Origin: an uncultured Planctomycetia bacterium
Lineage (GTDB): Bacteria; Omnitrophota; Gorgyraeia; Pluralincolimonadales; Pluralincolimonadaceae
Assembly: GCA_964650515.1 (NCBI GenBank)
Contig: CAZYUB010000002.1
Span: 12,708 to 76,707 of the forward strand
Reading direction: 5' to 3'
Length of the DNA: 64,000 bases
The notes beneath the pieces were generated by a model. That model saw only the letters and a program-made list of their open reading frames with translations. It did not search any database and was not told the origin of the DNA. The position numbers were made by a program, and so were the translations under genes. Shown here one piece after another: positions 328-57,938 of the stretch; the first letter of the stretch is position 1, and each line of letters starts with the position of its first letter.

Positions 328-351
328 ATGCGAAGAAGAGCGGAGGTTTAC

Positions 352-834: not shown

Positions 835-836
835 AT

Positions 837-8287: not shown

Positions 8288-8288
8288 T

Positions 8289-24552: not shown

Positions 24553-24558
24553 TAAGCC

Positions 24559-25401: not shown

Positions 25402-25417
25402 TCTAGGGAGGTTAGAG

Positions 25418-27391: not shown

Positions 27392-27392
27392 T

Positions 27393-32298: not shown

Positions 32299-32299
32299 G

Positions 32300-34097: not shown

Positions 34098-35246
34098 ATG
34101 AAGATGCGGAAGGCTGTCATAATAATATTATGCTGTACCGTAGCGTTTACGTTATTTCCGTTCGCGATGTTGGCCAACAGGGGTACGGCATATTTCGCTT
34201 ACAAAGAGATAGCATATAAAACGATGGCAGATAGGCTGGCCAGCAGCTCTGACGGGCCTGAAGAAGCAGCGATGCGCATCAGCGAGTATTATCACCGGTA
34301 CCTGTTCACGCCGTTAGGGGCCCAAGCCGTAGATAAGGATACTTATAATGACATCATCAGGGGAATAGCATATTGCGACCAGAAGGCCTGGGGGATGTCC
34401 GCTTTTCTTGCGAAACGGGGAATAGACAGCAGGATGATTATGGCAGTCAATCCCGACGGCCAGTCAAACCATACCGCCCTTGAAGCGAATATCGGAGGAA
34501 AATGGAGGTATTTCGACCCACAATATGCGCTAGTTATACGCAGGAAGGACGGGGAGCTTGCTTCATACAATGATATGTGCGAGGACTCGTCGCTTTTGGT
34601 CGATTCTCCAAGGATGTGCCTGCTGGAGAAGGCCTGCCCCGCGGAGTTCGAGATCGTAAGTAAATACCTGGAAAAGAACGTGTTCAATCCGGGAGTTATA
34701 AAACCGGTAATATGGAATAGCCCCGCCAAAAGCAAGGGAAACGCAAAACGCGCCCTATCGGGCGTTTTGGACACTTATGTCGCGTTCTTCGGCAGGAAAT
34801 TCTCCTGTCTCTTCCAGGACGCGTATCTGGGCATCTATTCCGGGAAGGGCGGACATAATGCCGATTATCTGCTCGCAAGGAATTATGATATCTACGGAAG
34901 GTACGATAAAGCGGCCTATTATTACAGGAAGTTCATAGGGAATTCTTCATCAGATGCCGAAAGGTATTCCGCAATGCTGTTCCTCTCGATCATATATACA
35001 AATAGCGGGGACTATGAGGCCGCGATAGGTACACTCAGGACTATGATGGCGGAGCAGGCGTCATCTAAATGGGCGTCGTCTATGTATTACTGGCTCGGTT
35101 ATAATTATGAGGCCCGGAATGATGCGGAAAAGGCAGCGGATTGCTACCGGACCTCCATAAAGGAACGCGCGAAGACGGGTGACCCGTCGGATATGGTAAA
35201 ACTACTAGAACTAGATTCATTCGAAAGGCTTGCGGAATTGGAATGA
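34098..35246 (+). CDS. secreted or membrane-anchored transglutaminase-like (Cys-His-Asp) domain protein with C-terminal TPR repeats
   Basis: N-terminal hydrophobic signal/anchor. 'CDQKAWGMSAF' (Cys), 'NHTALE' (His), 'RYFDPQ' (Asp) are spaced as in transglutaminase-like cores. C-terminal repeated 'Y..A...Y..' TPR-like helices. Confidence 0.45.
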   Translation: MKMRKAVIIILCCTVAFTLFPFAMLANRGTAYFAYKEIAYKTMADRLASSSDGPEEAAMRISEYYHRYLFTPLGAQAVDKDTYNDIIRGIAYCDQKAWGMSAFLAKRGIDSRMIMAVNPDGQSNHTALEANIGGKWRYFDPQYALVIRRKDGELASYNDMCEDSSLLVDSPRMCLLEKACPAEFEIVSKYLEKNVFNPGVIKPVIWNSPAKSKGNAKRALSGVLDTYVAFFGRKFSCLFQDAYLGIYSGKGGHNADYLLARNYDIYGRYDKAAYYYRKFIGNSSSDAERYSAMLFLSIIYTNSGDYEAAIGTLRTMMAEQASSKWASSMYYWLGYNYEARNDAEKAADCYRTSIKERAKTGDPSDMVKLLELDSFERLAELE

Positions 35247-37066: not shown

Positions 37067-38022
37067 TAAAAGGCAGCAGGATATTCCTGACGGGCGGGGC
37101 CGGGTTCATCGGTTCGGCCCTGATAAGGCGGCTTATCGAAAATAACAAAGTCACTGTATATGATAACCTGCACCGTGATGCGCTCAAGCATACGGGTCTA
37201 GCCGATCACCCGAACCTGAAGTTCGTGAACGGGGACGTGCTCGACGCGGCGAGCGTCGAGGGGAGCATCGGTGATTCGGATATCATAGTTCACCTCGCGG
37301 CTATCGCCGGGGTCGATACCGTGCTTTCGATGCCGGTCAGGACGATGGAGGTGGCGCTGATAGGCTCGTATAACATGCTGAAGGCATGCGCCGGCCGCAA
37401 GGGGATAAAGAGGTTCATAGATTTCTCTACGAGCGAGGTATACGGCGCGGTCGCGAGGGACGTAAAGGAAAGCGATGCGACCCCGGTCGGCGCCGTAGGA
37501 GAGCCGAGATGGACGTACGCGGTAAGCAAGCTTGCCGCCGAGCATCTTGCGTTCAGCTATTACATGCAGCAGAAGCTGCCCGCCGTATCCATAAGGCCCT
37601 TTAACATATTCGGGCCTATGCAGGTGGGCGTTGGCGCTATACATATATTCATCAAGAAGGCGTTGAGGGGGGAGCCGATAACGCTCAATAACGGCGGCGG
37701 ACAGGTAAGGTCGTGGTGCTATATTGACGACATTGCGGACGCGGTCCTTCTTTGTATGGAGAAGGAAGCCGCCGTCGGGCAGGCGTTCAATATAGGCAAC
37801 CCGCAGAACACCGTCACGATAAAGGAACTCGCGGAGATGGTAAAGAAGGTTACCGGGTCTGCGAGCGGCATAGTGCCGGTCAACAACGACCGCGCCGAGG
37901 TCGAAGTAAGGATACCCGATATAGAAAAAGCGAAGAAACTCCTGGGTTTCATGCCTAAGGTCGGGCTCGAGGAAGGCTTGTCCAGGACCGTCGACTGGTA
38001 CAGAAAAGAACAGAAGGGGTGA
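37063..38022 (+). CDS. NAD-dependent epimerase/dehydratase (UDP-sugar 4-epimerase/decarboxylase-like extended SDR)
   Basis: '[14 protein letters not shown]', 'STSEVYG', 'YAVSKLAAE' YxxxK; 319 aa. Confidence 0.7.
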
Positions 38023-38026
38023 AGCG

Positions 38027-38545
38027 ATGAAAAGACCGGAATCCCACGGAAGCGGCGCATGCAAACGCTCGCAATTCGCGAAGATAGGCAAAGGAGTAGT
38101 GATCGAGAAAGGGGCGCTATTCTTCCATCCCGAGAATATCGAGATAGGTGATAACGTATATGTCGGGCATTACGCGATAATCAAGGGTTACTACAGGAAC
38201 AGGATGAAGATAGGAAGCGGGACGTGGATAGGCCAGCAGGCGTTCCTGCACAGCGCTGGCGGCATCACGATCGGCAAAGGCGTGGGGATCGGCCCGCATG
38301 TCCAGGTCCTGACATCGTCGCACGGGACCGGCGGCGCCGGGACCCCGGTAATGCGCAATAAGCTGCAATTCAAGCCCGTCATAATAGAGGACGGTTCGGA
38401 CATCGGCACCGGGGCAATCATACTGCCGGGAGTCAGGATCGGCAAGAACGCGATAATAGGCGCGGGAGCGGTGGTCACGAAGGATGTCCCTGCGTCATCG
38501 ATAGCCGTCGGGAACCCGGCAAAGGTAATAAAGAAAAGGAAATGA
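38027..38545 (+). CDS. hexapeptide-repeat (LbH) sugar O-/N-acetyltransferase (WbbJ/maltose acetyltransferase-like)
   Basis: Tandem hexapeptide '[13 protein letters not shown]', '[32 protein letters not shown]' and tail 'VGNPAKVI'. Confidence 0.75.
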
Positions 38546-39228
38546 AGCCCGTAATCTCGGCCATAGTGATGGCATATAACGAGGCTGCGAGCATAGATGA
38601 CACATGCCGCGAGATACACGGAGAATTATCCCGTATCGGCGACCCGTTCGAGCTCCTTATCATAGACGACGGCAGCACCGACGGGACGTCCGCGAAGGCC
38701 GACTCTATCGCCGCTTCCCTGCCGTACAGCAGGGTCGTGCACCATGCGGCAAATTCGGGCCTCGGGGGCGTATACAGGACGGGCTTCTCGGCCGCAGAGG
38801 GCAGTTATGTGACGTTCTTCCCGGCAGACGGGCAATTCCCCGCCGATATAATAGGGAAGTTCAGGCCCATGATGGGCGAATATGACATGGTGCTCGGATA
38901 CCTCCCCGAGAGGAAAGGGCAGGCGTTCGCGAAATTCCTGTCTAAGGCGGAGAGGTGCCTCTATGCCGCGCTGTTCGGGAAATTGCCGGTATTCCAGGGG
39001 ATAATGATGTTCAGGAGGGAACTGCCGGGCATGTTCAGGCTGAAGTCCTCCGGCAGGGGCTGGGCGGTCGTCATGGAGCTCATAATAAGGGTATCCCGCG
39101 CGGGTTTCAGGATAACGAGCGTCCCGACCGGATACCGGCCGCGGAAAAGCGGTTCATCGAAGGTCAATAACCTGAGGAATATCGTCGCAAACCTTGTCCA
39201 GGTCATCGTGCTGAGGTTCAATATATAG
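38542..39228 (+). CDS. GT2 polyprenyl-phosphate glycosyltransferase (DPM1/ArnC-like, short soluble form)
   Basis: '[14 protein letters not shown]...[11 protein letters not shown]...[14 protein letters not shown]...FPADGQFP' as in 23617..24552 and 49246..50184. Confidence 0.65.
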
Positions 39229-39229
39229 C

Positions 39230-40765
39230 ATGAAAAGGCCCGTAGCCATAGCGTTGCTGTTGCTGATGAACCTTACGGCGCATTTCATGCCGTTCGAAAG
39301 GGCGGCGCTCGCGCCGGATGATTACGCGACGCTCGTAAGGTCGCTTCCGGCCGTGGAATGCGGGACTTCACACATAAAGGCGTATGCAGACAGGCCGCTG
39401 AATTACGCGTTCCTCGCCCTGCAGGCAAAATACATAGGCGACAATGCCGGGCTGGCGTTCATCCTGTTATTCCTGTCCGCCTGCGCGCTTTTGCTGGCCG
39501 TATTTATGCTGCTTGAAAGGATATTCGGGGATACAGCCGCGGCTTTCATAGGGGCGGCGGTATTTTGCCTGCTCCCGAACAAGCTTGAGACGTACCATAC
39601 GCTAATATTCCTTAATATTAACCTCGTATCGCTTATATATGTCGTGAGCTTCGCGCTATTCATCGCCCATGCAGGCACAGGCAGGAGAGAGGTCCTTCTT
39701 GCGTCAGTGTTGTTGTATGCCGCGGGCATATTCTGGTATGAAGTGGGATTTTTTATGCCTTTGCTGATGTTATCCTATTGTTTCCTGGACAAGAGATGCA
39801 GGCCGGTATCGGTAATGCCTTTCATGGCGGTGGCGTTGTTTTATGCGGTCTACAGGTTCACGGGGGCCTACGGCATGGCTGCCGGAGCGGAAGGGCAGTC
39901 CCATTCCGTCTCATTGGCTATGCTGCCGCTCAACATCAAGGAGCTGTTCCATCATTATGCCGGAAGGTATGCGGCCCGCAGCGTATTATACGGTTTCTAT
40001 AATTTCGCGGCTATGCAGACCGTATGGCTTGTCGCCGTGTCGGCGGCGCTGCTTGCGCTCATCATTTCGGTGAGGTCTGCTCTTGCGGGCACGGGAACGC
40101 CGGAAATAAGAAAGGGCACCTTTATGCTCGGGCTGGCGGCGTTCTTAACCATGATGTTGCCGATATTGTTCAATGATAAGGGAGGAATAGGCGGAAGGCA
40201 CCTGATGCTTCCGTCGATAGGCGTGTCCATAATGGCGGTGCCGGCGCTGATGTACGCGGGCAAGGCGTGGAAACATATTCTGATAGCGTTCATAATTATT
40301 ATGTCCGTCGTGGGAGCAGGGAATGCATGGACACAGGTGGTCGCCTGCCGGATAAACGCGGCGGTGTTCGGGTATTTGAAGTCGAACGGCCCGGCGCTGG
40401 GATCCGCAAAGGCCGTGGTAATAGATACGAACAGTTTTGCGGAGAAGATAAAATATACGCTGGTGAAGAGGGATTTTAACCTCTTTAACACATATTACGG
40501 GGCGCAGGCTTTTGAGGATTGGGGGCTCATAAGCATGGTAAGGTGGGCGGCGAAGGACAGCGGAAAGCAGGTATACGTATCCATAAGCTCGCCATATGCC
40601 AAAAAGGGCGAGGTCAAGTTCTGCGTTTACGAATATAAAGGATACCGTTCAAAGGGCGTAAAGGACATACGCCTGCCCGCCGATGGGACGTTCGTGGTAG
40701 GAGCTAAAGAGGTATTCGGAGGCGATACGGATGCAGGCATCAGAAAGCTGGGCATAAGGAAATGA
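39230..40765 (+). CDS. polytopic membrane protein (GT-C-like glycosyltransferase or polymerase candidate)
   Basis: About 12 hydrophobic helices with a short soluble C-terminal tail; no soluble catalytic domain; lies in the GT2/GT-C context. Confidence 0.4.
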   Translation: MKRPVAIALLLLMNLTAHFMPFERAALAPDDYATLVRSLPAVECGTSHIKAYADRPLNYAFLALQAKYIGDNAGLAFILLFLSACALLLAVFMLLERIFGDTAAAFIGAAVFCLLPNKLETYHTLIFLNINLVSLIYVVSFALFIAHAGTGRREVLLASVLLYAAGIFWYEVGFFMPLLMLSYCFLDKRCRPVSVMPFMAVALFYAVYRFTGAYGMAAGAEGQSHSVSLAMLPLNIKELFHHYAGRYAARSVLYGFYNFAAMQTVWLVAVSAALLALIISVRSALAGTGTPEIRKGTFMLGLAAFLTMMLPILFNDKGGIGGRHLMLPSIGVSIMAVPALMYAGKAWKHILIAFIIIMSVVGAGNAWTQVVACRINAAVFGYLKSNGPALGSAKAVVIDTNSFAEKIKYTLVKRDFNLFNTYYGAQAFEDWGLISMVRWAAKDSGKQVYVSISSPYAKKGEVKFCVYEYKGYRSKGVKDIRLPADGTFVVGAKEVFGGDTDAGIRKLGIRK

Positions 40766-42114
40766 AAAGGGTCTCGGCGGGATTTCTGGCGGCCTGCGCG
40801 ATCTTCGGCTCGTCGTATCTCATATCACCGGGTTTTGCGTTATGTATACTGTTGTCCGTTGCGTTCTTTTACGCGGTCCGCAGGAATACCGGCGAAGACG
40901 ACAGGATGTTCGTATTATTCATGATATCGGCCGCGGTGGTCCTGAGGGTCGCGGGCCTCATAATACTGCAATACAAATGCCTTTCGATGGGCCAACTGGA
41001 TATCTTCGGGGACGCCCAGGACAACATCATACAGGGGATAAATATAAGCGATTCAATCAGGAACATGAAAGAGATCCCGGTCACGCCGCAATCGATATTA
41101 TCGAGCAGGTACAATACGCATTCGATGACAATATTCAACGGGATATTCTTTTTATTGTTCGGACACGATATCGTATCGTTGAAATACGTAAATATACTGG
41201 CGATATGCGCGACGGCGTGGATAATATACGACTTCGCAAAAAATATATATTCCGGCGCGGCAGGCAGGATCGCACTCGCGATAATACTATTCTGGCCTAC
41301 TGTATTCATCTGGTCGTTGACAGACCTCAAGGAGAGCCACCTGTTGTTCACGGTCGCATGCTCGTTCTGGCTGCTTGACAAGGCGGCAAGGGGGAAGGGA
41401 GTGTTAAGGAAGGCCGTTTTCGTCACGCTGTCGGTCCTGTTCGCGTTCTATTTCGTACTGCTGAAGATAAAGTTGATGATGCCGGTTTTCATCCTATCCG
41501 CGTCATTGATCGTGCTTTATAACGCGCTGCATTACGGGTTCTCTAAAGACCCGGCACTGTCGCGGAAGGTGTTGTACGTATCGCTTGTACCCGCAGCCGC
41601 GATCATAATGGCGTTCGGCGGCCGCATATTACAGGCCGCTAAGGGAATGTATGCGTTGATACTACATTACCATATAGGGTTCCTTAACAGCGGAGGATGG
41701 AATGTAAACCTTATAGGCGACCAGTCACAGTGCTATTTCACGCTGCAATTTATAACAAAATATATCGTAAAAGCCTGGTTGTATTTCCTTCTTGAGCCGC
41801 TTCCGTGGCATTTTTATTCGTTTAGCCTTACCGTTACATATCCGGTGATGATCACATGGTACATCCTCGTGGCGTTCTCCGTTGTCGGTATAGGAAAGAT
41901 ATTTTACTCTGGTAAGGCGAAAGAGATTTTTGCGATGCTTGTATTTATGACTATATATATCACGGTAGTCGGAATGTCTGTGGCGAACATAGGGACTTTA
42001 ATACGTTTTAGGGATGCAATGGTGCCTATCGTGGCGTTGTTCGCGGGGATAGGGCTATCGGGGATATCGCGGATACCTACGGTAACGGAGGAGAGATGCA
42101 AGAACATACGATAA
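40762..42114 (+). CDS. polytopic membrane protein (GT-C-like glycosyltransferase/O-antigen polymerase-like candidate)
   Basis: 450 aa, at least 10 hydrophobic helices; ATGA overlap with the upstream gene. Confidence 0.4.
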   Translation: MKRVSAGFLAACAIFGSSYLISPGFALCILLSVAFFYAVRRNTGEDDRMFVLFMISAAVVLRVAGLIILQYKCLSMGQLDIFGDAQDNIIQGINISDSIRNMKEIPVTPQSILSSRYNTHSMTIFNGIFFLLFGHDIVSLKYVNILAICATAWIIYDFAKNIYSGAAGRIALAIILFWPTVFIWSLTDLKESHLLFTVACSFWLLDKAARGKGVLRKAVFVTLSVLFAFYFVLLKIKLMMPVFILSASLIVLYNALHYGFSKDPALSRKVLYVSLVPAAAIIMAFGGRILQAAKGMYALILHYHIGFLNSGGWNVNLIGDQSQCYFTLQFITKYIVKAWLYFLLEPLPWHFYSFSLTVTYPVMITWYILVAFSVVGIGKIFYSGKAKEIFAMLVFMTIYITVVGMSVANIGTLIRFRDAMVPIVALFAGIGLSGISRIPTVTEERCKNIR

Positions 42115-43547
42115 GGAAGGCCTTGATACCGGCGGCCGGGAAAGGTATAAGGGCATATCCGAAGAGCAGGTATCTTCCGAAGACGCTCCTCGAGATAGAA
42201 GGAAAACCCCTGATCGAGAATAACATAGCGATATTAAGGGACCAGCTCGGGATAAAGGACATTACCGTGATCGTGGGGCACCTTGCCGATAAGATAAAAG
42301 CCCGGCTCGGGGACGGGAGCCGGTTCGGGGTGTCTATCAAGTATTTGGATTGCGGCGATCCCGACGAAGGCCTCGCGAAGGGCATACTGCTGGCAGAGAA
42401 GGAGTTCGACGAGCCGTTCATATGCATATTGGGCGATGAGTACTACTTCGGTTCCAACCATTCCGGGCTTGCGAAGATCCCGGCAGACGCCGGCTATGTC
42501 TGCGCGGTAAAGCACTCGACAGACATTAAGTCCATCAAGAAAAATTATAACGTCGAGATCGAGGGCGGGTTCGTCAGCAGGATAATCGAGAAACCGGCCG
42601 AGATCAGGCAATGGAACCTGGGGTGCGGGACATATCTGCTCAGGCCGGAGATATTCGGCCTGATACGCAGGACGAAGCCGTCGCACAGGAGCCATAAGGT
42701 CGAATTCATGGATGCGCTCGACCTCGCCGTGCAGGAAGGCGCGAAGGTGAAGCCGTACTACCTCGAAGGCATATACTATAACATCAATACCATCGAAGAC
42801 GTGAACCAGTGCAATTATGATATCCGTTCGCTGAATTTCGGAAAATACAAGGTAAGCGTCGTGATACCCGCGCATAATGAGGAAGCGACCATAGCTACCG
42901 TCATCGAGGACCTGCGGCAGCACGTCGACGAGGTGCTTGTAGTCAATAACGGCTCGAACGACAGGACCTCCGAGGTCAGCAGGAAGGCCGGCGCGAGGGT
43001 CGAGGAGGTCTCGTTGAAGGGCTACGGCGACACTATAAAGCACGGCCTCGAAAAGGCGTCCGGCGACATACTCATCGTGACCGAGGCGGATTACTCGTTC
43101 CGTTCGAAGGATATAGGCAAGTTCCTCGAGTACATAAAGGATGCCGACATGGTCATTGGCACGCGGACGACGCGGCAGCTCGTTGAACAGGGGGCGAACA
43201 TGAGCCTGATGCTGCTGCTCGGGAACCTCGTATACGCGAAGATAGTCGAGATCCTCTGGTGGGGCATCGACCCGCCGCGTTTTACCGATGTCGGCTGCAC
43301 CTACAGGGCCATTTGGAAGAGCTCGTTCGAGAAGATAAAGGGAGACCTGAAGTCTACGGGGCCGGAGTTCTCCGTCGAGATGATGATAAAGACGCTCAAA
43401 TACAAACTGCGCGTCCTTGAGATACCGATATCGTATTACCCGCGCCTTGAAGGCGTATCGAAACATTCGAAGAACTGGTTCGGCATCCTGAGGACTGCCT
43501 CGAGGATGATGCGCCTTATAATAAGAGAAAGGCTGGACAACAGGTGA
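42096..43547 (+). CDS. bifunctional sugar-phosphate nucleotidyltransferase / GT2 (DPM1-like) glycosyltransferase fusion
   Basis: N-terminus 'ALIPAAGKGIRAYPKSRYLPKTLLEIEGKPLI' (NTP_transferase). C-terminus 'VSVVIPAHNEEATI...LVVNNGSNDRTSEV...ILIVTEADYSF' (GT2). Confidence 0.6.
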   Translation: MQEHTIRKALIPAAGKGIRAYPKSRYLPKTLLEIEGKPLIENNIAILRDQLGIKDITVIVGHLADKIKARLGDGSRFGVSIKYLDCGDPDEGLAKGILLAEKEFDEPFICILGDEYYFGSNHSGLAKIPADAGYVCAVKHSTDIKSIKKNYNVEIEGGFVSRIIEKPAEIRQWNLGCGTYLLRPEIFGLIRRTKPSHRSHKVEFMDALDLAVQEGAKVKPYYLEGIYYNINTIEDVNQCNYDIRSLNFGKYKVSVVIPAHNEEATIATVIEDLRQHVDEVLVVNNGSNDRTSEVSRKAGARVEEVSLKGYGDTIKHGLEKASGDILIVTEADYSFRSKDIGKFLEYIKDADMVIGTRTTRQLVEQGANMSLMLLLGNLVYAKIVEILWWGIDPPRFTDVGCTYRAIWKSSFEKIKGDLKSTGPEFSVEMMIKTLKYKLRVLEIPISYYPRLEGVSKHSKNWFGILRTASRMMRLIIRERLDNR

Positions 43548-44992
43548 AGCGCGCGATAAGGAAAGCGCTGCTTTGCTATCCGCCGGTGGGGCTGTTCCAG
43601 AGGGGCGAGGAGAGGTGCCAGGCGGATATCGAGGGCTCGGCGACACAGGCGCCGCATGCACCTAATGACCTCGGGTATATCGCCGCTTGCCTCGGAAGGC
43701 GGGGGATAGAATGCATAATAAAGGATTATCCGGCAGAGGGGGTGCAGGAGGCGGCCGTGCTGGAAGAGGTAAAGGCATACTCGCCGGACATTATGCTTAT
43801 CAGCACGACTACGCCTACGTTCCCCGAAGACGTCCGGTTCCTGGAGAAGGTAAAGTCGGCTCTGCCGGGGACATTTACCGTCGCTAAGGGAAGTTGTTTC
43901 TGCTCGCTTCCGCTGGATGAACTTCAGAAATGCGAATACAGGCCGCTCGACGCTGCCATTTACGGGGAAGCCGAATTTATAATAGAGGAACTGGTTAAAG
44001 CTTTGGGGGCGGACGGCCGCCTCGACGGAGTAGAGGGTATAATAATAAATATCGGGACGAAGGATGCCGCGAGGACCGCGCGCCCGCGATTCCGTGAGGA
44101 CCTCGATTCCCTGCCGTTCCCAGCGAGGGGCCTGATGAACAACGGGCTCTACAGGAACCCGCTTACCGGCAGGCCCATGGCCACTATACTTGTCTCCCGC
44201 GGGTGCCCTTCACAATGCATATTTTGCCTTACGCCGGTAATATCCGGGCATAAGTTCAGGAAGAGGTCCGTCGGTAATGTCTTGGATGAGATAAAGGACT
44301 GCGTTAAGAATTACGGCATCAGGGATTTCTTCTTCCGTGCCGACACATTTACAATGGATAACGAATACGTGAAACAGCTGTGCGGCAGGATACTGGATGA
44401 AGGGCTCAAGATAACATGGGTGGCTAATAGCAGGGCCGACGTGGTAAGCAAGGAGCTCCTCGCGGCGATGAAGGCGGCGGGATGCGCGCTCGTCGCGTTC
44501 GGGTTCGAATCCGGCAATGAGGATATACAGCGGAAGATCAAGAAGAACGCGTCCGCGGATGACGCGCGCCGCGCGGTCAGGTTATGCAGGGAAGCGCGGC
44601 TGAAGACGCTCGGGTTCTTCATGATAGGTTTCCCGTGGGACGATGAGAAGACGGTTGAGGACACGGCCGCGCTGGTCAGGGAACTCGATTGCGATTTCAT
44701 AGAAGTGCATATAGCGCTGCCGTTCGAGGGCACGGAGCTCAACGACATATGCCGGGACCTCGGGCTCATAAAGGAGACATCGGTCGGATACAACTATTTC
44801 TCGAACCCTTACGGCGGCGGGACGCTGCACCTGGGAAGGGAACGCCTGGCACAGCTCAGGAAAGATATCATAAAGAGACAGTACCTGAGGTTACCGTATA
44901 TATTTCGCATGCTTACGCACTGCAGCTCTTTTTATGAATTCATGAACTACATCAAGTACGGTTTCAGGCTCCTCGGAAAGGTCGCGTGTTGA
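43544..44992 (+). CDS. B12-binding domain radical SAM protein
   Basis: 'VSRGCPSQCIFC' CxxxCxxC. N-terminal B12-binding-like region 'IGSATQAPHAPNDLGYIAACL' as in paralogues. GTGA overlap start. Confidence 0.7.
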   Translation: MKRAIRKALLCYPPVGLFQRGEERCQADIEGSATQAPHAPNDLGYIAACLGRRGIECIIKDYPAEGVQEAAVLEEVKAYSPDIMLISTTTPTFPEDVRFLEKVKSALPGTFTVAKGSCFCSLPLDELQKCEYRPLDAAIYGEAEFIIEELVKALGADGRLDGVEGIIINIGTKDAARTARPRFREDLDSLPFPARGLMNNGLYRNPLTGRPMATILVSRGCPSQCIFCLTPVISGHKFRKRSVGNVLDEIKDCVKNYGIRDFFFRADTFTMDNEYVKQLCGRILDEGLKITWVANSRADVVSKELLAAMKAAGCALVAFGFESGNEDIQRKIKKNASADDARRAVRLCREARLKTLGFFMIGFPWDDEKTVEDTAALVRELDCDFIEVHIALPFEGTELNDICRDLGLIKETSVGYNYFSNPYGGGTLHLGRERLAQLRKDIIKRQYLRLPYIFRMLTHCSSFYEFMNYIKYGFRLLGKVAC

Positions 44993-46119
44993 GGAAAATA
45001 TCATTGCCCGTATACGAGGCATCGCGCTGCCGATTGTATGCGTTGGGAAGGAACGCGATGTATGCCGCGTGCAAGGCGTTCGGGCTGAAAGAAGGCGACG
45101 AGATATTGACGCCCGCGTTCGATTGCGACGGGTCTCTACAGCCGTTCAGGGCGCTCGGGCTGAAACTGAAGTTCTACCGTTCGGACCCGTACACTTTCGA
45201 AGCGGATACGGGCGATATGGAAGCAAGGATGGGGCCGTCTACAAAGATGGTCCACGTCATCAACCATTTCGGAATGCCCCAGCCGTGGGACAGGATAAAG
45301 AGGATATGCGTGGCCTCGAAGGTCCCCGTCATGGAGGACTGCGCGTATTCGCTGTTCTCGAAAGGATTCGGCACGAACGGCGATGCAGCGATATTCTCGC
45401 TGAGGAAGAACCTGCCGATTGTTGACGGCGGTATGCTGCGTATGAACAACGGGAATTACGCGCTGGGCCGTCAGGCAGAACGCGCGCCCCTATTCTACCG
45501 GACGGAATCGGCAAATGTGCTGACATTGGTCAAATCGGCGATGGGGTATTATAAGGCGCCAGAAGGGCTCAGGCGGATGCTCAGGAAGGCAAACCCGGCG
45601 GTCGAACCGCCTCCGCCTTTGTACTCGGAGAAGGAGAAGGGGTATCCCGAGTGGCCCCTGCGCGATCATACGGGCGAGGAGTTCAGCTGCGATTATGAAA
45701 GGCCCATCTCCGCGTTGGCGAGGTTCCAGCTGGAAGGCCTGCCGGAAGGATATTATAAAAATGCCGCGGAGATGAAACGGCGCTATTATTCGGAGCTCGC
45801 CGGGAAATTTGCCGGGCTGAACGGGTTACGGGTGCTCTGGCCGGAACTTCCGGAAGGGATAGTCCCTTTTTGCCTTTCCGTATTAGTGCACCGGGACAGG
45901 GACAGCATATTCGCGGAATTAAGGAAAAGATATGACGTGATGGCCTGGCCGACGCTTTCGCAGGAAGTCATCGACCGGCTTGACGAATACCCGGAAGTGG
46001 AGATCCTCGGCAGGAAGGTCCTGCAGTTCAACCTGCCGGCCGACAAGGTCATGAGGCGGGATTATCCCTTGTATATAGGCAGGCTCGCGCGCGATCTCAC
46101 CGCGCTTACGGAAAGATAG
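44986..46119 (+). CDS. DegT/DnrJ/EryC1/StrS-family PLP-dependent sugar aminotransferase-like (N-terminally short, divergent)
   Basis: 'NAMYAACKAFGLKEGDEILTPAF' aligns with the DegT 'alhlal.algi..GDEVivP.f' segment; 'VPVMEDCAYS', 'IFSLRKNLP' matches the SFxxxK PLP-lysine motif. GTG start. Confidence 0.5.
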   Translation: MLRKISLPVYEASRCRLYALGRNAMYAACKAFGLKEGDEILTPAFDCDGSLQPFRALGLKLKFYRSDPYTFEADTGDMEARMGPSTKMVHVINHFGMPQPWDRIKRICVASKVPVMEDCAYSLFSKGFGTNGDAAIFSLRKNLPIVDGGMLRMNNGNYALGRQAERAPLFYRTESANVLTLVKSAMGYYKAPEGLRRMLRKANPAVEPPPPLYSEKEKGYPEWPLRDHTGEEFSCDYERPISALARFQLEGLPEGYYKNAAEMKRRYYSELAGKFAGLNGLRVLWPELPEGIVPFCLSVLVHRDRDSIFAELRKRYDVMAWPTLSQEVIDRLDEYPEVEILGRKVLQFNLPADKVMRRDYPLYIGRLARDLTALTER

Positions 46120-47220
46120 ATGGAATACCGCTGGATCGAGGATATAGAGGATTTCAGGAAGATAGCGGGAGAATGGGACATGCTCGTCTCCAGCGGAGAC
46201 TCGCACCCTTTCCTGCTGTCGGATTTCATAATAACGTGGTGGAAATATTTCGGGAAGGGCAAGAAACTCAGGATATTCGTCATCGAGGAGGGCGGAAAGG
46301 TCAAAGGCGGCCTGCCTTTATGCCTTAACAGGGGCGGCGCAAGGGAGGGTTTCGCGGATCTCCTCCATTATATAGGAGAGGTCGCCGCGAATTACACGGA
46401 ACCGCTTTATTCAAACGGGAAGCCGGAGATATTCCCGTTGCTGGCCCGTGCGCTTTCGGAGAGGAACGACTGGGATGTCTTTTGCCTGACCGATATCAGG
46501 GAAGGCAACCGGTTCCTGAAGGAGCTCAAAGGCGCGACGGGTCAGAAGGGCTGTTCGATATTCCTCATAAGCGACCATATGAACTACGCGATAGACCTTG
46601 GTAAGGGGCTCGACAGTTATCTTTCGTCGTTATCGCCGAAACTCAAGAGGGACCTGAGATCGAAGCGCAAGCACCTCACGCAGAAGTGCGGAGCGATAGT
46701 CCTCGAGAAGGCCTCGGGCGAAAAGGAAGTTGGAGAAAGCGCCGCCCTTTACAAGAAGTTCTCAAGGGAAGCGTTCGCGGCGAGGAACAGGAAGAGCAAT
46801 TTCGAGAACGACAAATACGCGGATTTCTTCGGGGAATTCCTAGTCCTGATGGAAAAGGCCGGCCGGCTGGACGCGCACCTGCTCAAGGCGGGAGATACCG
46901 TGCTTGCGATAAGCTTCGCGTACAGGTTCGGCAGGGGCTTCAACTGGGTCCTTACGGCGTTCGATTACGAATATAAGTATTACAGGCCGGGATATATCCT
47001 CATAGAGGAATTACTGAAGGAGATATGCGCGAGGGGCGAGACATATTACAACTGGTACGGGCACGGGCGTTTTTACAAGGACCAGCTTTGCAACCTGCTT
47101 AAGCCCCTGTATAAGGTGATGATGGTAAGGAAGACGTTGAAAGGTTCGTCGTACCTGCTTTCGCAAAAAGCCAAGAAGGCGGTCAAGTACCTGAAAGGGC
47201 TGGTCGACGGTGCAAAATAA
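46120..47220 (+). CDS. FemAB/BioF2-like (Acetyltransf_6, CelD-like) GNAT-fold acyl- or aminoacyltransferase
   Basis: 366 aa. The N-terminal 'W..L......PFL...F...W' segment and C-terminal 'GYILIEELLKEICARGETYYNWYGHG' resemble the BioF2-like acetyltransferase family. Confidence 0.45.
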   Translation: MEYRWIEDIEDFRKIAGEWDMLVSSGDSHPFLLSDFIITWWKYFGKGKKLRIFVIEEGGKVKGGLPLCLNRGGAREGFADLLHYIGEVAANYTEPLYSNGKPEIFPLLARALSERNDWDVFCLTDIREGNRFLKELKGATGQKGCSIFLISDHMNYAIDLGKGLDSYLSSLSPKLKRDLRSKRKHLTQKCGAIVLEKASGEKEVGESAALYKKFSREAFAARNRKSNFENDKYADFFGEFLVLMEKAGRLDAHLLKAGDTVLAISFAYRFGRGFNWVLTAFDYEYKYYRPGYILIEELLKEICARGETYYNWYGHGRFYKDQLCNLLKPLYKVMMVRKTLKGSSYLLSQKAKKAVKYLKGLVDGAK

Positions 47221-48181
47221 CCCGGTACGCCGCCGCCTGCGCAGGGATTACCATGCCGTAAGGCGCGTCGTCGCGCATGCAAAAAATGCGCTTACGGACC
47301 CTTCGCCGAAACTCATAGTCCTTACGTACCACAGGATATTGCCTGCTGCCGGGCATAACCCTTTGAATACGGCTGTGTCGGAACGCGCCTTCGTAAAGCA
47401 GGTCGAGGGCGTTGCAAGGAAGGCGGGCATAATATCGCTGTCGGATGCGGCCGACCAGCTCAGGAACGGACGCGTTAAACGGGATTTGCAGGCGGTGATA
47501 AGCTTTGACGACGGGTATTCGGATAATTACGGGACGGCCTTCCCGCTATTGAAGCGGAAGGGCCTACCGGCGGTATTCTCCGTTTCGACCGCTTATATCG
47601 GCGCAGGTCTGCCGCTTTGGGATTCCGAAGCGATAATGAGGATAATCCGCGGGAATATAGGCCGGATAGACACCGCAGGTTTCACTGCCGAGAGAAGCAT
47701 GGCGGAATCGGCGCGTTCTTTCGCTTTCAGGGTCTTCGATGAACTGAAATCGAAGGACTTCGCGGTGATAGGAAAAGTCCTCGAATTCCTGAGGGAGAAG
47801 GACCCCGGATACGGAAACGAGGAAGGGCGCTGCATGACGTGGGAACAGGTAAAGGAATTGTCCGATGCGGGCATGGAGATCGGGTCGCACGCAGTGACCC
47901 ATAGGTCCCTCGCGAGGATACCCTTCGCGGAGGCGGAGTCCGAGGTGAACGCAAGCAAGGCCGAAATAGAGAAGAGGACCGGAAGGCGCTGCGCCCATTT
48001 CGCTTTCCCGTTCGGAAGCGCAAGGGATTATAATCCGAGACTGATAGAATGCGTAAGGAAGGCCGGATACGGGACCTGCCTGCTCAATATACACGGTTAC
48101 AACAGGATGGGCGAGGGCGCTTTCGCGCTGAAGAGGACTGTCATGGAAGAGGATACGGACGTGAGGTTCATACTTGGCTGA
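47210..48181 (+). CDS. polysaccharide deacetylase (NodB-homology, CE4 family)
   Basis: 'VISFDDGYSDNYGTAFPLLKRKGLPAVFSV', 'MEIGSHAVTHRSL' are NodB motifs 1-3. GTG start. Confidence 0.65.
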   Translation: MQNNPVRRRLRRDYHAVRRVVAHAKNALTDPSPKLIVLTYHRILPAAGHNPLNTAVSERAFVKQVEGVARKAGIISLSDAADQLRNGRVKRDLQAVISFDDGYSDNYGTAFPLLKRKGLPAVFSVSTAYIGAGLPLWDSEAIMRIIRGNIGRIDTAGFTAERSMAESARSFAFRVFDELKSKDFAVIGKVLEFLREKDPGYGNEEGRCMTWEQVKELSDAGMEIGSHAVTHRSLARIPFAEAESEVNASKAEIEKRTGRRCAHFAFPFGSARDYNPRLIECVRKAGYGTCLLNIHGYNRMGEGAFALKRTVMEEDTDVRFILG

Positions 48182-49244
48182 GAATATCATGCCGGAAGTG
48201 GATGTCATAATCCTGAGCTATCTCGATTACGGGAGGCTGCAGAAATGCGCCGATTCCGTATTGGCGTCCACCTACCCGAACCTGAAACTGGTCATAGCCG
48301 ATAACGGATCGGGGCCTAACGTCATCGCTGCCGTAAAGGAGAGGTATTCAGGGAACCCTAAGGTGGCAATAATAGAGAACAGGGAGAACCTCGGTTACGC
48401 CGAGGGCAACAACGTCGCGTTGAGGGCGACCGGAGGCAAATACTGCGTGATCCTCAACAACGACGCGATAGTCGACCGTAACTGGCTCGAGCCGATGGTC
48501 GAATACCTCGACAGGAACGCGAAAGCCGGCGCGTGCCAGCCGAAGATACTCGACATAAAGGACCCGCGCAGGTTTGAGCATTCCGGCGCCGCCGGCGGGT
48601 ACCTGGACAGGTACGGTTACCCGTTCATGAGGGGAAGGCTGTTCGATACGCTCGAGAACGATGAGGGCCAGTATGACGACCACGCATCGCTCGACTGGTG
48701 CTCCGGGACCGCGTTCATGGCCAAGCGCGAAGTGCTCGAAAAGGTGGGCCTTTTCGACCCGATATATTTCATGTATGGCGAAGAGAACGACCTCTGCTGG
48801 AGGATAAAGCGCTGCGGATACGACATCGCGTTCGTGCCGAGGTCGAAGGTCTACCACGAAGGCATGGGCTCTATAGGGAAACGCCCGCTTTTCAAGCTTC
48901 ACCTTAACTACAGGAATAACATAATACTGCTCATGAAGAATTTCAGCATGACCCAGCTGGCCGTAAGGCTTCCGGTAAGGATGGCGCTGGACGCCGTTAA
49001 TATCCTGTATTTTATCGCCAGCAAGCCAATGAGCTTCAGGTTTGCCAGCATCGTATGGGCTTATTGCGAGCTTGCGATCATGCTGCCGCGGATTATCCTC
49101 GCGAGGATACGCACGCAGCGCCTGTTCCGCGAACTCGGAAGCGAAAACGCCCCGCTATACCCGATGTACCAGATAAGCGTCGTCTTCCAGTATTTCCTGA
49201 TGGGAAGGAAAAAATTCAGCCAATTGAAATTAAGGAGAGCGTAA
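48174..49244 (+). CDS. GT2 family glycosyltransferase
   Basis: 'VDVIILSYLDYGRLQKCADSVLAST...LVIADNGSG...LNNDAIV'. The start could be TTG 48174 or ATG 48189. Confidence 0.7.
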   Translation: MAENIMPEVDVIILSYLDYGRLQKCADSVLASTYPNLKLVIADNGSGPNVIAAVKERYSGNPKVAIIENRENLGYAEGNNVALRATGGKYCVILNNDAIVDRNWLEPMVEYLDRNAKAGACQPKILDIKDPRRFEHSGAAGGYLDRYGYPFMRGRLFDTLENDEGQYDDHASLDWCSGTAFMAKREVLEKVGLFDPIYFMYGEENDLCWRIKRCGYDIAFVPRSKVYHEGMGSIGKRPLFKLHLNYRNNIILLMKNFSMTQLAVRLPVRMALDAVNILYFIASKPMSFRFASIVWAYCELAIMLPRIILARIRTQRLFRELGSENAPLYPMYQISVVFQYFLMGRKKFSQLKLRRA

Positions 49245-49245
49245 T

Positions 49246-50184
49246 ATGAATACGGCCCTTTCTATCGTCATCCCCACGTATAACGAGGAAGCTTCCATCG
49301 TCAAGCTACACGCAAGGATAAAAGAAGCCCTGCGCGGCAAGGTCAAATACGAGGTCATATTCGTCGACGACGGGAGCACCGACGGGACATGCGGCATATT
49401 GGGCAGGCTGAACCGCGAGGACCCGGACGTAAAGGCCGTGAGACTCTCGAGGAATTTCGGGCACGAGATAGCGACGTCCGCGGGGCTCAAATATGCGTCG
49501 GGAGAGGCCGTAGTCGTAATGGACTCCGACCTGCAGCATCCTCCCGAGACGATAAATGAACTGTTGGAGAAAATGAAGGAAGACTATGATATCGTCTTCG
49601 CGGTAAGGCGCAACAGGGAAGCCGGATCCGCGCTTAAAAAATTCTGCTCGAAGGCCTTCTACGGCATATTGGGCAGGCTGTCGGAGGTCAAACTGCCGGA
49701 TGACGTGACGGATTTCATGATACTCAACAGGAAAGCGGTCGACGCGTTCCTGAAGCTCAAGGAGAAGAGCCGGTTCTTCAGGGCCATGGTATCGTGGATG
49801 GGCTTCAGGACGGCATTCGTGCCGTTCGAGGAGGGCAAGAGGCGCAGCGGCAGCTCGAAATACGGCCTGCGGAAGCTCGCGGGCCTTTCGGTAGACGTAG
49901 TGACCGGATATTCGATAAAACCGCTGGCGTTCGTCGCATGGACAGGGTTCATAATATCGGCGTCAAGTTTTGCGCTGCTGATTTTCTACCTGGTCAAGAC
50001 GGTATTCTACGGCGCGTCCATGCCGGGTTACGCGTCGATGATGATAACGATATTGTTCATAGGCGGCATACAGCTGCTGTCGATCGGGATAATAGGCCAG
50101 TATATCGGCAGGATTTACAAGGAGACACAGAAGAGGCCGTTATACCTAGTCGGCAGCCTTATCGGACTGGAAGAAAAGGAATGA
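49246..50184 (+). CDS. GT2 polyprenyl-phosphate glycosyltransferase (DPM1/ArnC/GtrB-like) with C-terminal TM helices
   Basis: 'LSIVIPTYNEEASI...[11 protein letters not shown]...VRLSRNFGHEIATSAGL...VVMDSDLQHPPE', then two TM helices. Confidence 0.75.
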   Translation: MNTALSIVIPTYNEEASIVKLHARIKEALRGKVKYEVIFVDDGSTDGTCGILGRLNREDPDVKAVRLSRNFGHEIATSAGLKYASGEAVVVMDSDLQHPPETINELLEKMKEDYDIVFAVRRNREAGSALKKFCSKAFYGILGRLSEVKLPDDVTDFMILNRKAVDAFLKLKEKSRFFRAMVSWMGFRTAFVPFEEGKRRSGSSKYGLRKLAGLSVDVVTGYSIKPLAFVAWTGFIISASSFALLIFYLVKTVFYGASMPGYASMMITILFIGGIQLLSIGIIGQYIGRIYKETQKRPLYLVGSLIGLEEKE

Positions 50185-51896
50185 CACGTAAGAAGGCCGC
50201 CCTGTTGTTGGCCGTCGTGCTGCTGGCGGCATTCCACATCGCCGCAAGCATCGCGCAGATGTCTAACAAGTTCGACGATGAGCCCGCCGCAGGGCCTTTC
50301 GGCGGGATACGCCTGCATTACCTGAATGTCCTCAACTTCGATTTCTCGCATGGGGTGTCAGCGCCGGCCGGCACGTCGCATATACTGGACAATTTCATCA
50401 AGTCGGCGGTCAGCGGAACGCACGGGCTCCTTGATTTTGCGCACTGGTACGCATACGCGGGCATATATGACATGCTCGGGATACCGGTGAACGAGTTCTG
50501 GCTTTTGTTCGCGCAGACCGTGGTGATGTTCTGCGGCCTCATGTTGATGGCATACGCGGTATACAGGCTCTACGATGATGCAGTAGCGGCGCTGGTATTC
50601 CTGGCGATAACGTCCCAGGCGTATGTGCAGCACTCCATCAGTTTCTATATAATACCGGCCAATACGCTATATGAGGGACTCCTACTTCTCGCGATATACT
50701 TTTACGACTGGAAGGAGAAGGGGTTTGCGCGGAAAATCCCGCTTCTCGCGATGTTATTCATAAACTCGGCCTGCGGCAACGTGATAAAACTGCCGGTATA
50801 CCTGTATTTCGCATGGGCCGCGGCGTATAAACGGGACAATTACGGGCCGGTGCGTTCGGCCAGGGAATACTTCGTAAAGAACCCCGCGAACCTGACGCTT
50901 GCGGTCCCGGTCATTGCCGCGGCCGTCGCGCACCTCTATGTATACAAGAGGATAGGAGAGAGCAATCTCGGGCTTTTGGGCTGGGTCTCGCAGAAGATAG
51001 GCATAGGAGCTCCGCTCGTTTCGAAGTTCGCAGCGATAGGAAGTTCGCTGAAGAGCATGCTGCTGTCAGGCATGTGGCAGTGGTGGGCGTTTGCAGCACT
51101 TGCGGCATTTTACGCGATAGCCGTAATGCGGGGAAAGAAACAAACACCGCTGCTGTTATTTCCCGTCGTATATTACCTGTACCTCATAAATCTCGAGCCG
51201 TATTCGGCGATGCTTCCCTATATGATTATCGCGTCTATAGCGATAGCGCAGGCCTTCAGGATGGCATCCGATAAAACACGGAATGCGGCCGCGAGGTATG
51301 TTTCAACTGCGGCAGCCGCGGTCTTCACGGCATACATACTGTCGGTCCCGGCGTCCGCGAACATGGCTTCCCTCGTCTCGCCGAGGCAACGGTCACCCAA
51401 TTACCTGAAGAGCGTCGGTTATTACCTTAGGGAGCATATGAGCAAGGATGATAAGATCGCAAGCTTGCTCGACCAGAGGGAGAACATCCTGAACGAATAT
51501 TATTACGGAAAGAACTTCTTCAAGAGCCCGGTATTCGGGAAATATATCTATGACATGAGGAACATTTCGGAGCCGCCGTCTTCAACGAACCCGGTAGCCG
51601 AAGGCGAGGCGGACATGGAATTCCCTTTTTATGTCGTATCTGCGTCGTGTTATAAAAAGGACGCGGGATATGCCTCATTTGTAGATAGGCTCGCAAAGAA
51701 ATACTCTCTCAAGAAGGTCGCCGATATCGCCTCGGGCGGCACCGTCTATGCGTCGGTGTATTCTTCGAGGCCTCTGCAATACGAGAGGTTAGAGGCCGAG
51801 AATGCCAATGGGAAATTTGACAGGAAATACGCAAATTTAAAGAAACTGTTCTACAACAGGCATGTCGGCGTAGCCTCGACATGGGGGTTCTATTGA
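50181..51896 (+). CDS. polytopic GT-C fold membrane glycosyltransferase candidate (PMT_2/ArnT-like)
   Basis: ATGA overlap start at 50181 'MTRKKAALLLAVVLL'; the track start 49794 is an upstream extension. At least 11 TM helices and a C-terminal soluble ~150-aa tail. Confidence 0.5.
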   Translation: MTRKKAALLLAVVLLAAFHIAASIAQMSNKFDDEPAAGPFGGIRLHYLNVLNFDFSHGVSAPAGTSHILDNFIKSAVSGTHGLLDFAHWYAYAGIYDMLGIPVNEFWLLFAQTVVMFCGLMLMAYAVYRLYDDAVAALVFLAITSQAYVQHSISFYIIPANTLYEGLLLLAIYFYDWKEKGFARKIPLLAMLFINSACGNVIKLPVYLYFAWAAAYKRDNYGPVRSAREYFVKNPANLTLAVPVIAAAVAHLYVYKRIGESNLGLLGWVSQKIGIGAPLVSKFAAIGSSLKSMLLSGMWQWWAFAALAAFYAIAVMRGKKQTPLLLFPVVYYLYLINLEPYSAMLPYMIIASIAIAQAFRMASDKTRNAAARYVSTAAAAVFTAYILSVPASANMASLVSPRQRSPNYLKSVGYYLREHMSKDDKIASLLDQRENILNEYYYGKNFFKSPVFGKYIYDMRNISEPPSSTNPVAEGEADMEFPFYVVSASCYKKDAGYASFVDRLAKKYSLKKVADIASGGTVYASVYSSRPLQYERLEAENANGKFDRKYANLKKLFYNRHVGVASTWGFY

Positions 51897-57926: not shown

Positions 57927-57938
57927 GTGAGGGTAAAG

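Follow-up and report, generated by a model that had tools for sequence, protein, structure and literature searches.

A conserved trio of DegT-like, Fem-like and CE4 deacetylase genes probably involved in the acylation of amino sugars of bacterial surface glycans

A 64,000-nucleotide stretch of contig CAZYUB010000002.1, from an uncultured Planctomycetia bacterium placed by GTDB in the Omnitrophota (hereafter the window), carries three consecutive genes that encode a short pyridoxal phosphate (PLP) enzyme of the DegT family, a transferase with the tandem-GNAT fold of FemX, and a deacetylase of carbohydrate esterase family 4 (CE4). Comparison of gene neighborhoods across lineages supports the view that the three, referred to below as the DegT-like, Fem-like and CE4 genes, constitute a functionally linked module and are the unit that is conserved. 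The module probably attaches an acyl group, possibly an amino acid, to amino sugars of surface glycans; it is a conserved variant assembled from known kinds of enzymes, and no paper describing it was found in our literature searches. A previous, sequence-only reading had proposed an amino-sugar N-acylation cassette of four genes, the first of them encoding a radical S-adenosylmethionine (rSAM) enzyme. The four open reading frames (ORFs), all on the plus strand, and the domains claimed for them agree with our ORF and Pfam checks, and the linkage of the last three stands, with a contiguous arrangement in 11 of 17 lineages and one gene fusion, but the rSAM gene does not belong to the cassette, being absent from the loci L008 and L018. 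The members of the trio are:

44986–46119, plus strand: short-form DegT-family PLP enzyme, 377 amino acids, first gene of the trio (DegT_DnrJ_EryC1, PF01041, 1.6e-16)
46120–47220, plus strand: Fem-like tandem-GNAT transferase, 366 amino acids, suggested hub of the trio (Acetyltransf_6, PF13480, 6e-18)
47210–48181, plus strand: cytoplasmic PgaB/IcaB-type CE4 metallo-deacetylase, 323 amino acids, third gene of the trio (Polysacc_deac_1, PF01522, 2e-20)

From the rSAM gene to the family 2 glycosyltransferase (GT2) gene that follows the trio, no intergenic space separates consecutive genes (overlaps of 7, 0, 11 and 8 nucleotides), and promoter-like and terminator-like sites between 40 and 52 kb are no more frequent than expected by chance, which is consistent with a single operon. 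Neither a transmembrane (TM) segment nor a signal peptide is predicted in the rSAM, DegT-like, Fem-like or CE4 proteins.

Conservation of the trio

The genomic contexts of 17 independent lineages containing a Fem-like or a DegT-like gene were searched with profiles of the DegT-like, Fem-like and CE4 families; L019–L021 and L025 had been found via the DegT-like family and the remaining lineages via the Fem-like family. The three genes are distributed as follows:

Trio contiguous: the window and L007; L008 and L018; L009; L010; L003; L017; L001; L019; L020; L021; L025
Trio dispersed within 13 kb: L011, a Nomurabacteria metagenome-assembled genome (MAG)
DegT-like and Fem-like genes only: L016; L013, where the contig stops after the Fem-like gene
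CE4 and Fem-like genes only, no DegT-like gene: L015
Fem-like gene alone: L005, L012

The lineages with a contiguous trio are labelled Omnitrophota, 'Planctomycetia', Nitrospirae or Latescibacterota, or are unlabelled metagenome contigs. Adjacency of the DegT-like and Fem-like genes extends to 13 of the 17 lineages, and in L025 the two are fused into one gene encoding 800 amino acids (6001–8403), which is followed by a second Fem-like gene, the CE4 gene and a GT2 gene. Two Fem-like genes thus stand between DegT and CE4 in L025, as they do in L009, by tandem duplication (8824–11209). The loci that retain a single pair, L016 with DegT-like and Fem-like genes and L015 with CE4 and Fem-like genes, fit two amine producers feeding one acyltransferase and suggest that the Fem-like protein is the hub on which both converge. 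In a neighbor-joining tree, trio-associated Fem-like proteins are spread across the whole family, with the copies that stand alone nested among them. A division into DegT-side and CE4-side Fem types was considered and rejected on the placement of the duplicated copies in this tree, where the L025 copies are assigned to separate deep clades and the L009 copies group within the clade of the window protein. Two further variants were observed: L019 has a second short DegT gene after the Fem-like gene (10017–11084), and the L005 locus, free of DegT and CE4 genes, encodes two divergent Fem-like proteins on opposite strands (4208–5413, minus; 7992–9104, plus).

Conservation reaches, less regularly, to the genes that flank the trio in the window:

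40762–42114, plus strand: multi-TM protein resembling glycosyltransferases of the GT-C class (weak PMT_2 match, TM prediction)
48174–49244, plus strand: GT2 glycosyltransferase directly 3' of the trio (Pfam)
49246–50184, plus strand: GtrB/ArnC/PgfS-like polyprenyl-phosphate glycosyltransferase ending in two TM helices (NCBIfam PgfS 4e-82, ArnC family 4e-55, both under the cut-off)

The GT2 gene at 48174 is kept 3' of CE4 in L007, L008, L018 and L009, and a GT2 gene also occupies this position in L001, L003, L021 and L025. In L003, L008 and L018 the GT-C-like gene is the immediate 5' neighbor of the DegT-like gene.

Association with a 6-deoxyhexose pathway

A second set of genes recurrently associated with the trio appears to specify an activated deoxyhexose:

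30069–34094, plus strand: nucleoside diphosphate (NDP)-6-deoxyhexose block, consisting of an RfbF-like nucleotidyltransferase, a short-chain dehydrogenase/reductase (SDR), a cupin, an RmlD-like reductase and a GT2

The nucleotidyltransferase looks CDP-type and RfbF-like (280 bits, cut-off 300), and the cupin (31849–32298, 149 amino acids) is above the Pfam thresholds of both RmlC and FdtA. Orthologs of the block, with 48–77% identity, are found immediately 5' of the DegT–Fem pair in L010, L016 and L003; in L001 the block is partial, comprising the nucleotidyltransferase, the cupin, an SDR and a GT2 of weak similarity, and in L011 the Fem-like gene is located inside the deoxyhexose block. In the window, an insert of some 11 kb separates the trio from the block:

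34098–44992: transglutaminase/TPR protein, GT-C (PMT_2), UXS/ArnA-C-like SDR (37063), left-handed β-helix (LbH) acetyltransferase, GT2, two membrane proteins, nucleotidyltransferase–GT2 fusion and rSAM

The Fem-like protein

The Fem-like protein scores 65.7 bits against Acetyltransf_6 (PF13480, cut-off 22), a family matched by all 24 of its homologs, and structure comparison reveals a tandem-GNAT fold of the FemX type. The assignment to Acetyltransf_6/FemAB-like proteins in the sequence-only reading is thereby upheld, with no match to an unrelated family. The structural matches and their scores are:

FemX (4ii9), 20.6
FemX (6snr), 20.2
FemA (1lrz), 20.1
Sbb17 in complex with streptothrisamine, an amino sugar, 18.2
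2hqy, of unknown function, 17.0
MprF synthase domains (four chains), 15.8–16.6
acyl-CoA tandem GNATs, about 12

The principal candidate for a catalytic residue is a lysine close to the C-terminus:

47077–47079, plus strand: K320 codon, within R-F-Y-K-x-Q-(W/L), invariant in homologs

K320 is invariant in the 24 homologs and in every locus copy. Compared at the level of sequence, its surroundings conform to an [F/Y]-K-x-x-aromatic motif, as in F304-K305 of FemX and the FK of FemA, and K305 is the catalytic residue of FemX (PMC12945691). There is precedent for amino sugar and nucleotide-linked acceptors, the acceptor of Weissella FemX being UDP-linked and the amino sugar intermediate streptothrisamine being aminoacylated by Orf11 in a Gly-tRNA-dependent reaction (PMC12945691).

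At the level of Pfam profiles the relationship is more remote. FemAB (PF02388) matches with 15.2 bits against a cut-off of 24 and is found below the threshold in 8 of the 24 family members; FemAB, FemAB_like and ATE_C are the only sub-threshold matches from the GNAT superfamily, other weak matches being scattered and unrelated. Searches of PDB sequences with the protein and with the family profile gave no useful match, the only sequence hit, to the TIR domain of TLR2 (E 0.01), being spurious. The Fem-like protein differs from FemABX and their natural-product relatives (Orf11/Sbb17, PacB, VlmA, DhpH) in staying below the Pfam FemAB cut-off, in having no coiled-coil arm and in its context, which is a polysaccharide cluster instead of peptidoglycan or antibiotic synthesis. 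Its C-terminal helix is basic (residues 340–365, +6). A tblastn search of 72,556 plasmids with the Fem-like protein gave no match, and the window contains no tRNA gene.

The DegT-like enzyme

The DegT-like protein scores 60.9 bits against PF01041 (cut-off 19.8), its residues 22–158 corresponding to positions 49–191 of the 360 in the profile, and both Pfam and PDB sequence matches are confined to residues 12–170. The AlphaFold2 model (pLDDT 92.5) extends the resemblance: all 50 of the top 50 Foldseek matches in the PDB are DegT-family structures aligned over both domains, with E-values down to 6e-19 and TM-scores of 0.59–0.66, so that the model has the fold of a type I PLP enzyme with both domains. 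The enzyme had been described as N-terminally short and as retaining the PLP lysine, and both statements are borne out by the family alignment. Residues 12–13 align to residues 49–72 of solved DegT enzymes, leaving about 40 canonical N-terminal residues missing; all 47 aligned family members are equally short, the stop-to-stop frame has room for at most 16 additional codons at its 5' end, and canonical DegT relatives begin 20–40 residues earlier. The lysine is encoded at:

45406–45408, plus strand: codon of K141, the predicted Schiff-base lysine, in F-S-L-R-K (F-x-x-x-K; alignment)

The sequence FSLRKNLP covers residues 137–144, and in an alignment of the 47 homologs K141, D118, E117, F137 and S138 are invariant, D118 being the aspartate expected to pair with the pyridine nitrogen of PLP; the region of K141 can be aligned without gaps to the SFxxxK...GG motif of 7b0m. 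Loss of the PLP lysine is what sets E1/ColD-type dehydratases apart, and a dehydratase role of this kind was rejected on the strength of its retention. The family is further characterized by a conserved insertion of about 80 residues (PPPPLYS...RD..G.EF..DY.RP.S, residues ~155–240). When 1.84 billion representative proteins were searched with the family profile, the near-full-length clusters scoring above approximately 260 bits numbered only about 20, and the next DegT proteins scored about 190 bits, where canonical, longer sequences start. By these sequence comparisons, the DegT-like proteins are a small, distinct subfamily of short DegT enzymes.

The CE4 deacetylase

The third protein scores 73.5 bits against PF01522, its N-terminus matches PgaB (1.3e-17) and IcaB, and its best PDB sequence match is 4wcj. 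The predicted active site includes:

47507–47512, plus strand: codons of the FDDG aspartates D100-D101, which supply the catalytic base and a metal ligand (alignment)
47888–47902, plus strand: codons of H227-x3-H231, metal-binding histidines (alignment)

In the family alignment D100, D101, H227, H231 and R309 show no variation and Y40-H41 almost none, while the histidine of canonical motif 5 (H295) is unconserved; we take H41 to be the catalytic acid, by equivalence to H55 of PgaB. As judged from these alignments, the enzyme is of the motif-permuted PgaB/IcaB type with an intact active site, so that of the earlier designation as a NodB-type CE4 deacetylase the CE4 domain stands and the NodB type does not. 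No signal peptide or TM segment indicative of export is predicted, which implies a cytoplasmic substrate, either nucleotide-linked or lipid-linked.

Proposed pathway

Considered together, these data lead us to propose, with a probability of roughly 45%, that the Fem-like protein is an N-acyltransferase serving amines made by the DegT-like enzyme and amines exposed by the CE4 enzyme. The folds, conserved candidate catalytic residues, predicted cytoplasmic location, conservation and fusion are observed; the substrates, the donor and the order of the steps are inferred. The module (44986–48181) would be a translationally coupled, cytoplasmic set of three enzymes for amino-sugar tailoring. The DegT-like enzyme, using K141 and D118, would transaminate an NDP-4-keto- or 3-keto-6-deoxyhexose supplied by the Rml/Fdt-like block (30069–33199 in the window), and the Fem-like protein, using K320, would N-acylate the new amine, an aminoacyl group from aminoacyl-tRNA being a slightly likelier donor than an acyl group from acyl-CoA. 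The CE4 enzyme would remove the acetyl group of an N-acetylhexosamine (HexNAc) in a nucleotide-linked or lipid-linked intermediate, exposing a second amine that might be left free or also be acylated by the Fem-like protein, and the flanking GT2 enzymes would incorporate the products, with the rSAM enzyme as a lineage-specific addition. The more specific version, in which the Fem-like protein transfers an amino acid from tRNA onto the amine of a nucleotide- or lipid-linked amino-6-deoxyhexose, a de-N-acetylated HexNAc, or both, is put forward more tentatively, at odds clearly below even. The sequence-only reading, in which a keto-sugar is aminated and a GlcNAc-type residue is de-N-acetylated and re-acylated with a non-acetyl group, is supported in part, its order of reactions, acceptor and non-acetyl or aminoacyl donor being conjectural. 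It omitted the link to the NDP-6-deoxyhexose and GT2 genes, the likely source of the keto-sugar, as well as the alternative modelled on the Arn pathway discussed below.

The gene logic is that of the dTDP-Qui3NAc/Fuc3NAc-type pathways (RmlA, RmlB, QdtA/FdtA, QdtB/FdtB, QdtC/FdtC) and of 4-amino-6-deoxyhexose pathways, which share with the present loci a nucleotidyltransferase, an SDR of the 4,6-dehydratase type, a small cupin, a DegT-family aminotransferase and an N-acyltransferase, followed by a glycosyltransferase. Unlike in those pathways, the aminotransferase of the trio belongs to a short, insertion-bearing subfamily, the acyltransferase is a FemX-fold tandem GNAT and not an LbH or single-domain GNAT protein, a cytoplasmic CE4 enzyme is an integral partner, and the nucleotidyltransferase looks CDP-type.

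Several observations weigh against the proposed pathway. With respect to the donor, the fold likeness of the modelled Fem-like protein to Fem enzymes is no proof of tRNA use, and hhalign of its family with FemA yields a weak local match of 4% probability; the net charge of +14, considered as a sign of tRNA binding, was discounted since the other two trio proteins are basic as well and FemA is neutral. Within limited literature searches, no member of PF13480 came to light whose donor or acceptor has been demonstrated, and searches on PF13480/Acetyltransf_6 and on decoration of O-antigens with amino acids by Fem-like proteins returned nothing specific. With respect to the acceptor, the missing ~40 N-terminal residues and the ~80-residue insertion mean that the substrate of the DegT-like enzyme is perhaps not a classical NDP-sugar, and the Fem-like genes of L005 and L012 lie beside deoxyhexose genes with neither DegT nor CE4, so that in these loci an amine produced by a DegT-like enzyme is excluded as the acceptor, which might be a hydroxyl. 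CE4 enzymes strip acetyl or formyl groups, an activity also compatible with an Arn-like cycle. The L025 fusion is known from a single Logan contig and might be an assembly or frameshift artefact. Finally, the role of HfsK in Caulobacter, to which we return below, is still unsettled (PMC5362036, PMC8449245).

Alternative pathways

Two of the alternatives fare best, although we consider each of them unlikely. One, a serious rival nonetheless, is transient protection as in the Arn pathway (ArnA, ArnB, ArnC, ArnD, ArnT): the unfavorable amination of a keto-sugar by the DegT-like enzyme would be driven by N-acetylation or other N-acylation of its product, the sugar would be loaded onto polyprenyl phosphate by a GtrB/ArnC-like GT2 enzyme, deacylated by CE4 in the manner of ArnD and transferred by a GT-C enzyme, so that an unprotected, cationic amino sugar is displayed on the outer side of the membrane. 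All functional classes of Arn enzymes are encoded within about 12 kb of the window (the UXS/ArnA-C-like SDR at 37063, the DegT-like enzyme, an acyltransferase, CE4, the ArnC-like GT2 at 49246, and the GT-C at 40762 together with several PMT_2 proteins), so that a keto-sugar SDR, a DegT-type enzyme, an N-acyltransferase, a polyprenyl-phosphate GT2, a CE4 enzyme and a GT-C enzyme, the classes found in Arn, lie near one another. DegT and CE4 mostly co-occur, the DegT-like gene of L011 is directly followed by a GtrB/ArnC-like GT2 gene in the order arnB–arnC (1640–3674), and the specificity of CE4 enzymes is for acyl groups that are small, all of which favors such a cycle. The equivalog tests failed, however, with 33 bits against 631 for the ArnB family, 187 against 529 for the ArnC family, which leaves the GT2 far under the cut-off, and no NCBIfam ArnD match for CE4. 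Moreover, no formyltransferase domain was seen, in contrast to Arn, and the GtrB-like GT2 is not a constant neighbor, going undetected beside the trio in L001, L010, L016 and L019–L021. A cycle of protection and deprotection also sits awkwardly with L015, where CE4 and Fem-like genes occur without DegT, and with the loci that have two Fem-like genes. The fold of the Fem-like protein is nearest to enzymes that use aminoacyl-tRNA, and an aminoacyl residue would be an odd temporary protecting group.

The other, which we rate just as low, restricts the Fem-like protein to re-acylation: CE4 would free the amine of a lipid-linked GlcNAc-type sugar and the Fem-like protein would re-acylate that same amine, with the DegT-like enzyme acting on another sugar or on the added acyl or aminoacyl group. 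In Nod factor synthesis NodB deacetylates and NodA N-acylates. Cytoplasmic de-N-acetylation by a CE4 enzyme and N-acylation of the freed amine would be common to NodB/NodA and the present system, unlike which the CE4 of the trio is of the permuted PgaB/IcaB type and its acyltransferase is unrelated to NodA. Another parallel is the Caulobacter holdfast, where a cytoplasmic CE4 enzyme (HfsH) and a FemX-like GNAT (HfsK), a putative N-acyltransferase, act on a polysaccharide precursor; hfsH and hfsK mutants resemble each other in phenotype and HfsK has been proposed to acylate amines exposed by HfsH (PMC5362036). HfsK homologs are reported to be genetically linked to exopolysaccharide systems and have a basic C-terminal extension (PMC5362036), and the basic C-terminal helix of the Fem-like protein recalls this membrane-targeting extension. 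The CE4–Fem pair of L015 and the cytoplasmic CE4 with its intact active site also fit re-acylation. On the other hand, adjacency is tighter between DegT and Fem than between CE4 and Fem, the former pair is fused once and stands without CE4 in L016, and the DegT-like enzyme would be left with no clear role. The chemistry of HfsK is itself unproven, deletion of hfsK in Hirschia having had no effect (PMC8449245), and hfsK is unlinked to hfsH in Caulobacter (PMC8449245), unlike the adjacent Fem-like and CE4 genes studied here, which are joined by the DegT-like gene.

Fem-like GNATs and CE4 enzymes also occur together in exopolysaccharide loci of the PEP-CTERM/exosortase type, which carry a FemAB-family protein and a polysaccharide deacetylase (TIGR03019, TIGR03006). 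Neither the Fem-like nor the CE4 protein matched these two NCBIfam models at E ≤ 0.01, and no exosortase or PEP-CTERM marker is present among the domain annotations of the window.

It is improbable that the Fem-like protein instead forms an ester, as MprF does, by O-acylating or O-aminoacylating a deoxyhexose hydroxyl while the DegT-like and CE4 enzymes catalyze parallel, independent steps. The Fem-like genes of L005 and L012, which have RmlD-like, RmlC-like, GT1 and GT2 genes as neighbors, could be explained in this way, but the trio in 11 of 17 lineages and the DegT–Fem fusion could not, and the best structural matches, FemX, FemA and Sbb17, form amides.

Most improbable of all is a route centred on the rSAM enzyme and resembling hopanoid synthesis (HpnI, a GT2; HpnK, a deacetylase; HpnJ, an rSAM), in which a polyprenyl-phosphate HexNAc made by the nucleotidyltransferase–GT2 fusion would be deacetylated by CE4 and rearranged by the HpnJ-like rSAM enzyme to a carbocyclic amino-pseudosugar for further tailoring, for although the rSAM gene is always found with that fusion and beside a deacetylase and is the most HpnJ-like of its kind in the window, its score is far below the HpnJ cut-off, most trio loci have no rSAM gene, and sampled homologs occur on their own in non-glycan contexts.

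Implications

Exopolysaccharide loci often contain genes for FemX-like GNATs, such as HfsK, CelD/BcsL and the PEP-CTERM-associated FemAB proteins; within limited literature searches, none of these is known to have a demonstrated reaction. The trio places such an enzyme between two that generate amines, once in a fusion, and near a defined deoxyhexose pathway, and thereby leads to a specific hypothesis that can be addressed in vitro, with an NDP-amino-6-deoxyhexose or a glucosamine-type acceptor and aminoacyl-tRNA or acyl-CoA as the donor. It also defines the distinct subfamily of short DegT enzymes. If the tRNA-dependent version of the pathway is correct, it would provide a concrete hypothesis for the reaction of HfsK-like enzymes and, besides peptidoglycan, membrane lipids and antibiotics, a new field for Fem-type chemistry: a dedicated and widely conserved tRNA-dependent decoration of polysaccharides in Omnitrophota and other uncultured phyla. 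Dependence on tRNA would extend the non-ribosomal use of aminoacyl-tRNA to surface glycans and might explain some of the N-aminoacyl amino sugars of bacterial polysaccharides.

The radical SAM gene and its companion

Upstream of the trio lie two genes that are present or absent together:

42096–43547, plus strand: sugar-1-phosphate nucleotidyltransferase fused to a polyprenyl-phosphate-type GT2 (Pfam/NCBIfam AglF, AglJ, dolichyl-P hexose transferase, PpgS)
43544–44992, plus strand: B12-binding rSAM enzyme, HpnJ/BchE-like (Radical_SAM 7e-24, B12-binding 3e-09)

With a B12-binding domain and a CxxxCxxC motif (CPSQCIFC, residues 221–228, at 44204–44227), the rSAM protein belongs to class B; against the NCBIfam HpnJ model it reaches 192 bits, far under the equivalog cut-off of 577.6. 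Four B12-binding rSAM genes are present in the cluster (4874–6520, 15710–17206, 19556–21076 and 43544–44992), and only the last is markedly HpnJ-like, the other three scoring 81–122 bits and having BchE or MJ_1487-type proteins as best models. Orthologs with more than 60% identity flank the trio, together with the nucleotidyltransferase–GT2 fusion, only in L007 and L009; neither gene occurs in L008 or L018, and the trio there is more similar to that of the window than is the trio of L009. The rSAM family is large, with at least 1553 matches at E ≤ 1e-30 among 8000 candidates scored, and three sampled homologs (L022, L023 and L024; 43–48% identity) are stand-alone genes in non-glycan contexts in other phyla, a hint that the ancestral role was another one, perhaps connected with lipids. 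One of the three adjoins a UbiA prenyltransferase gene. The pattern of presence and absence and the contexts of these homologs led us to reject the rSAM enzyme as a cassette member; by these comparative data it is a lineage-specific accessory outside the core trio.

The surrounding gene cluster

By ORF and domain annotation, the window is a single 64-kb plus-strand cluster in which almost all genes concern glycan biosynthesis. Its closest public relatives are Candidatus Omnitrophota MAGs, the proteins of L007 being 88–98% identical throughout the region. In public MAGs, proteins nearly identical to those of the cluster are assigned to taxa that disagree (Omnitrophota, Dehalococcoidales, 'Planctomycetia'), which points to inconsistencies in binning or labelling. 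Five large ORFs (511–616 amino acids) have no Pfam match: 837–2669, 9641–11491, 16963–18633, 39230–40765 and 50184–51896. The fourth of these has at least eight predicted TM segments and accompanies the GT-C gene 5' of the trio in L008, L009, L013 and L018. Three long minus-strand ORFs of 450–486 amino acids (8220–9572, 18054–19514 and 42234–43661) mirror plus-strand genes and are probably non-coding shadows. Gene fusions elsewhere in the window join a GT2 to a cytidylyltransferase (8289–9641) and a GT1 to DUF218 (57927–59783). The GC content is 0.45–0.48 at positions 1–4000 and 20000–30000 and about 0.55 in the rest of the cluster, suggesting a mosaic origin of parts of the locus. A GFO/IDH/MocA oxidoreductase, Ldh_2 and HMGL-like proteins and two CMP-type cytidylyltransferases (2662–4874, 7550–8287 and 13273–15728) suggest that the cluster specifies a second pathway, for a CMP-activated acidic sugar.

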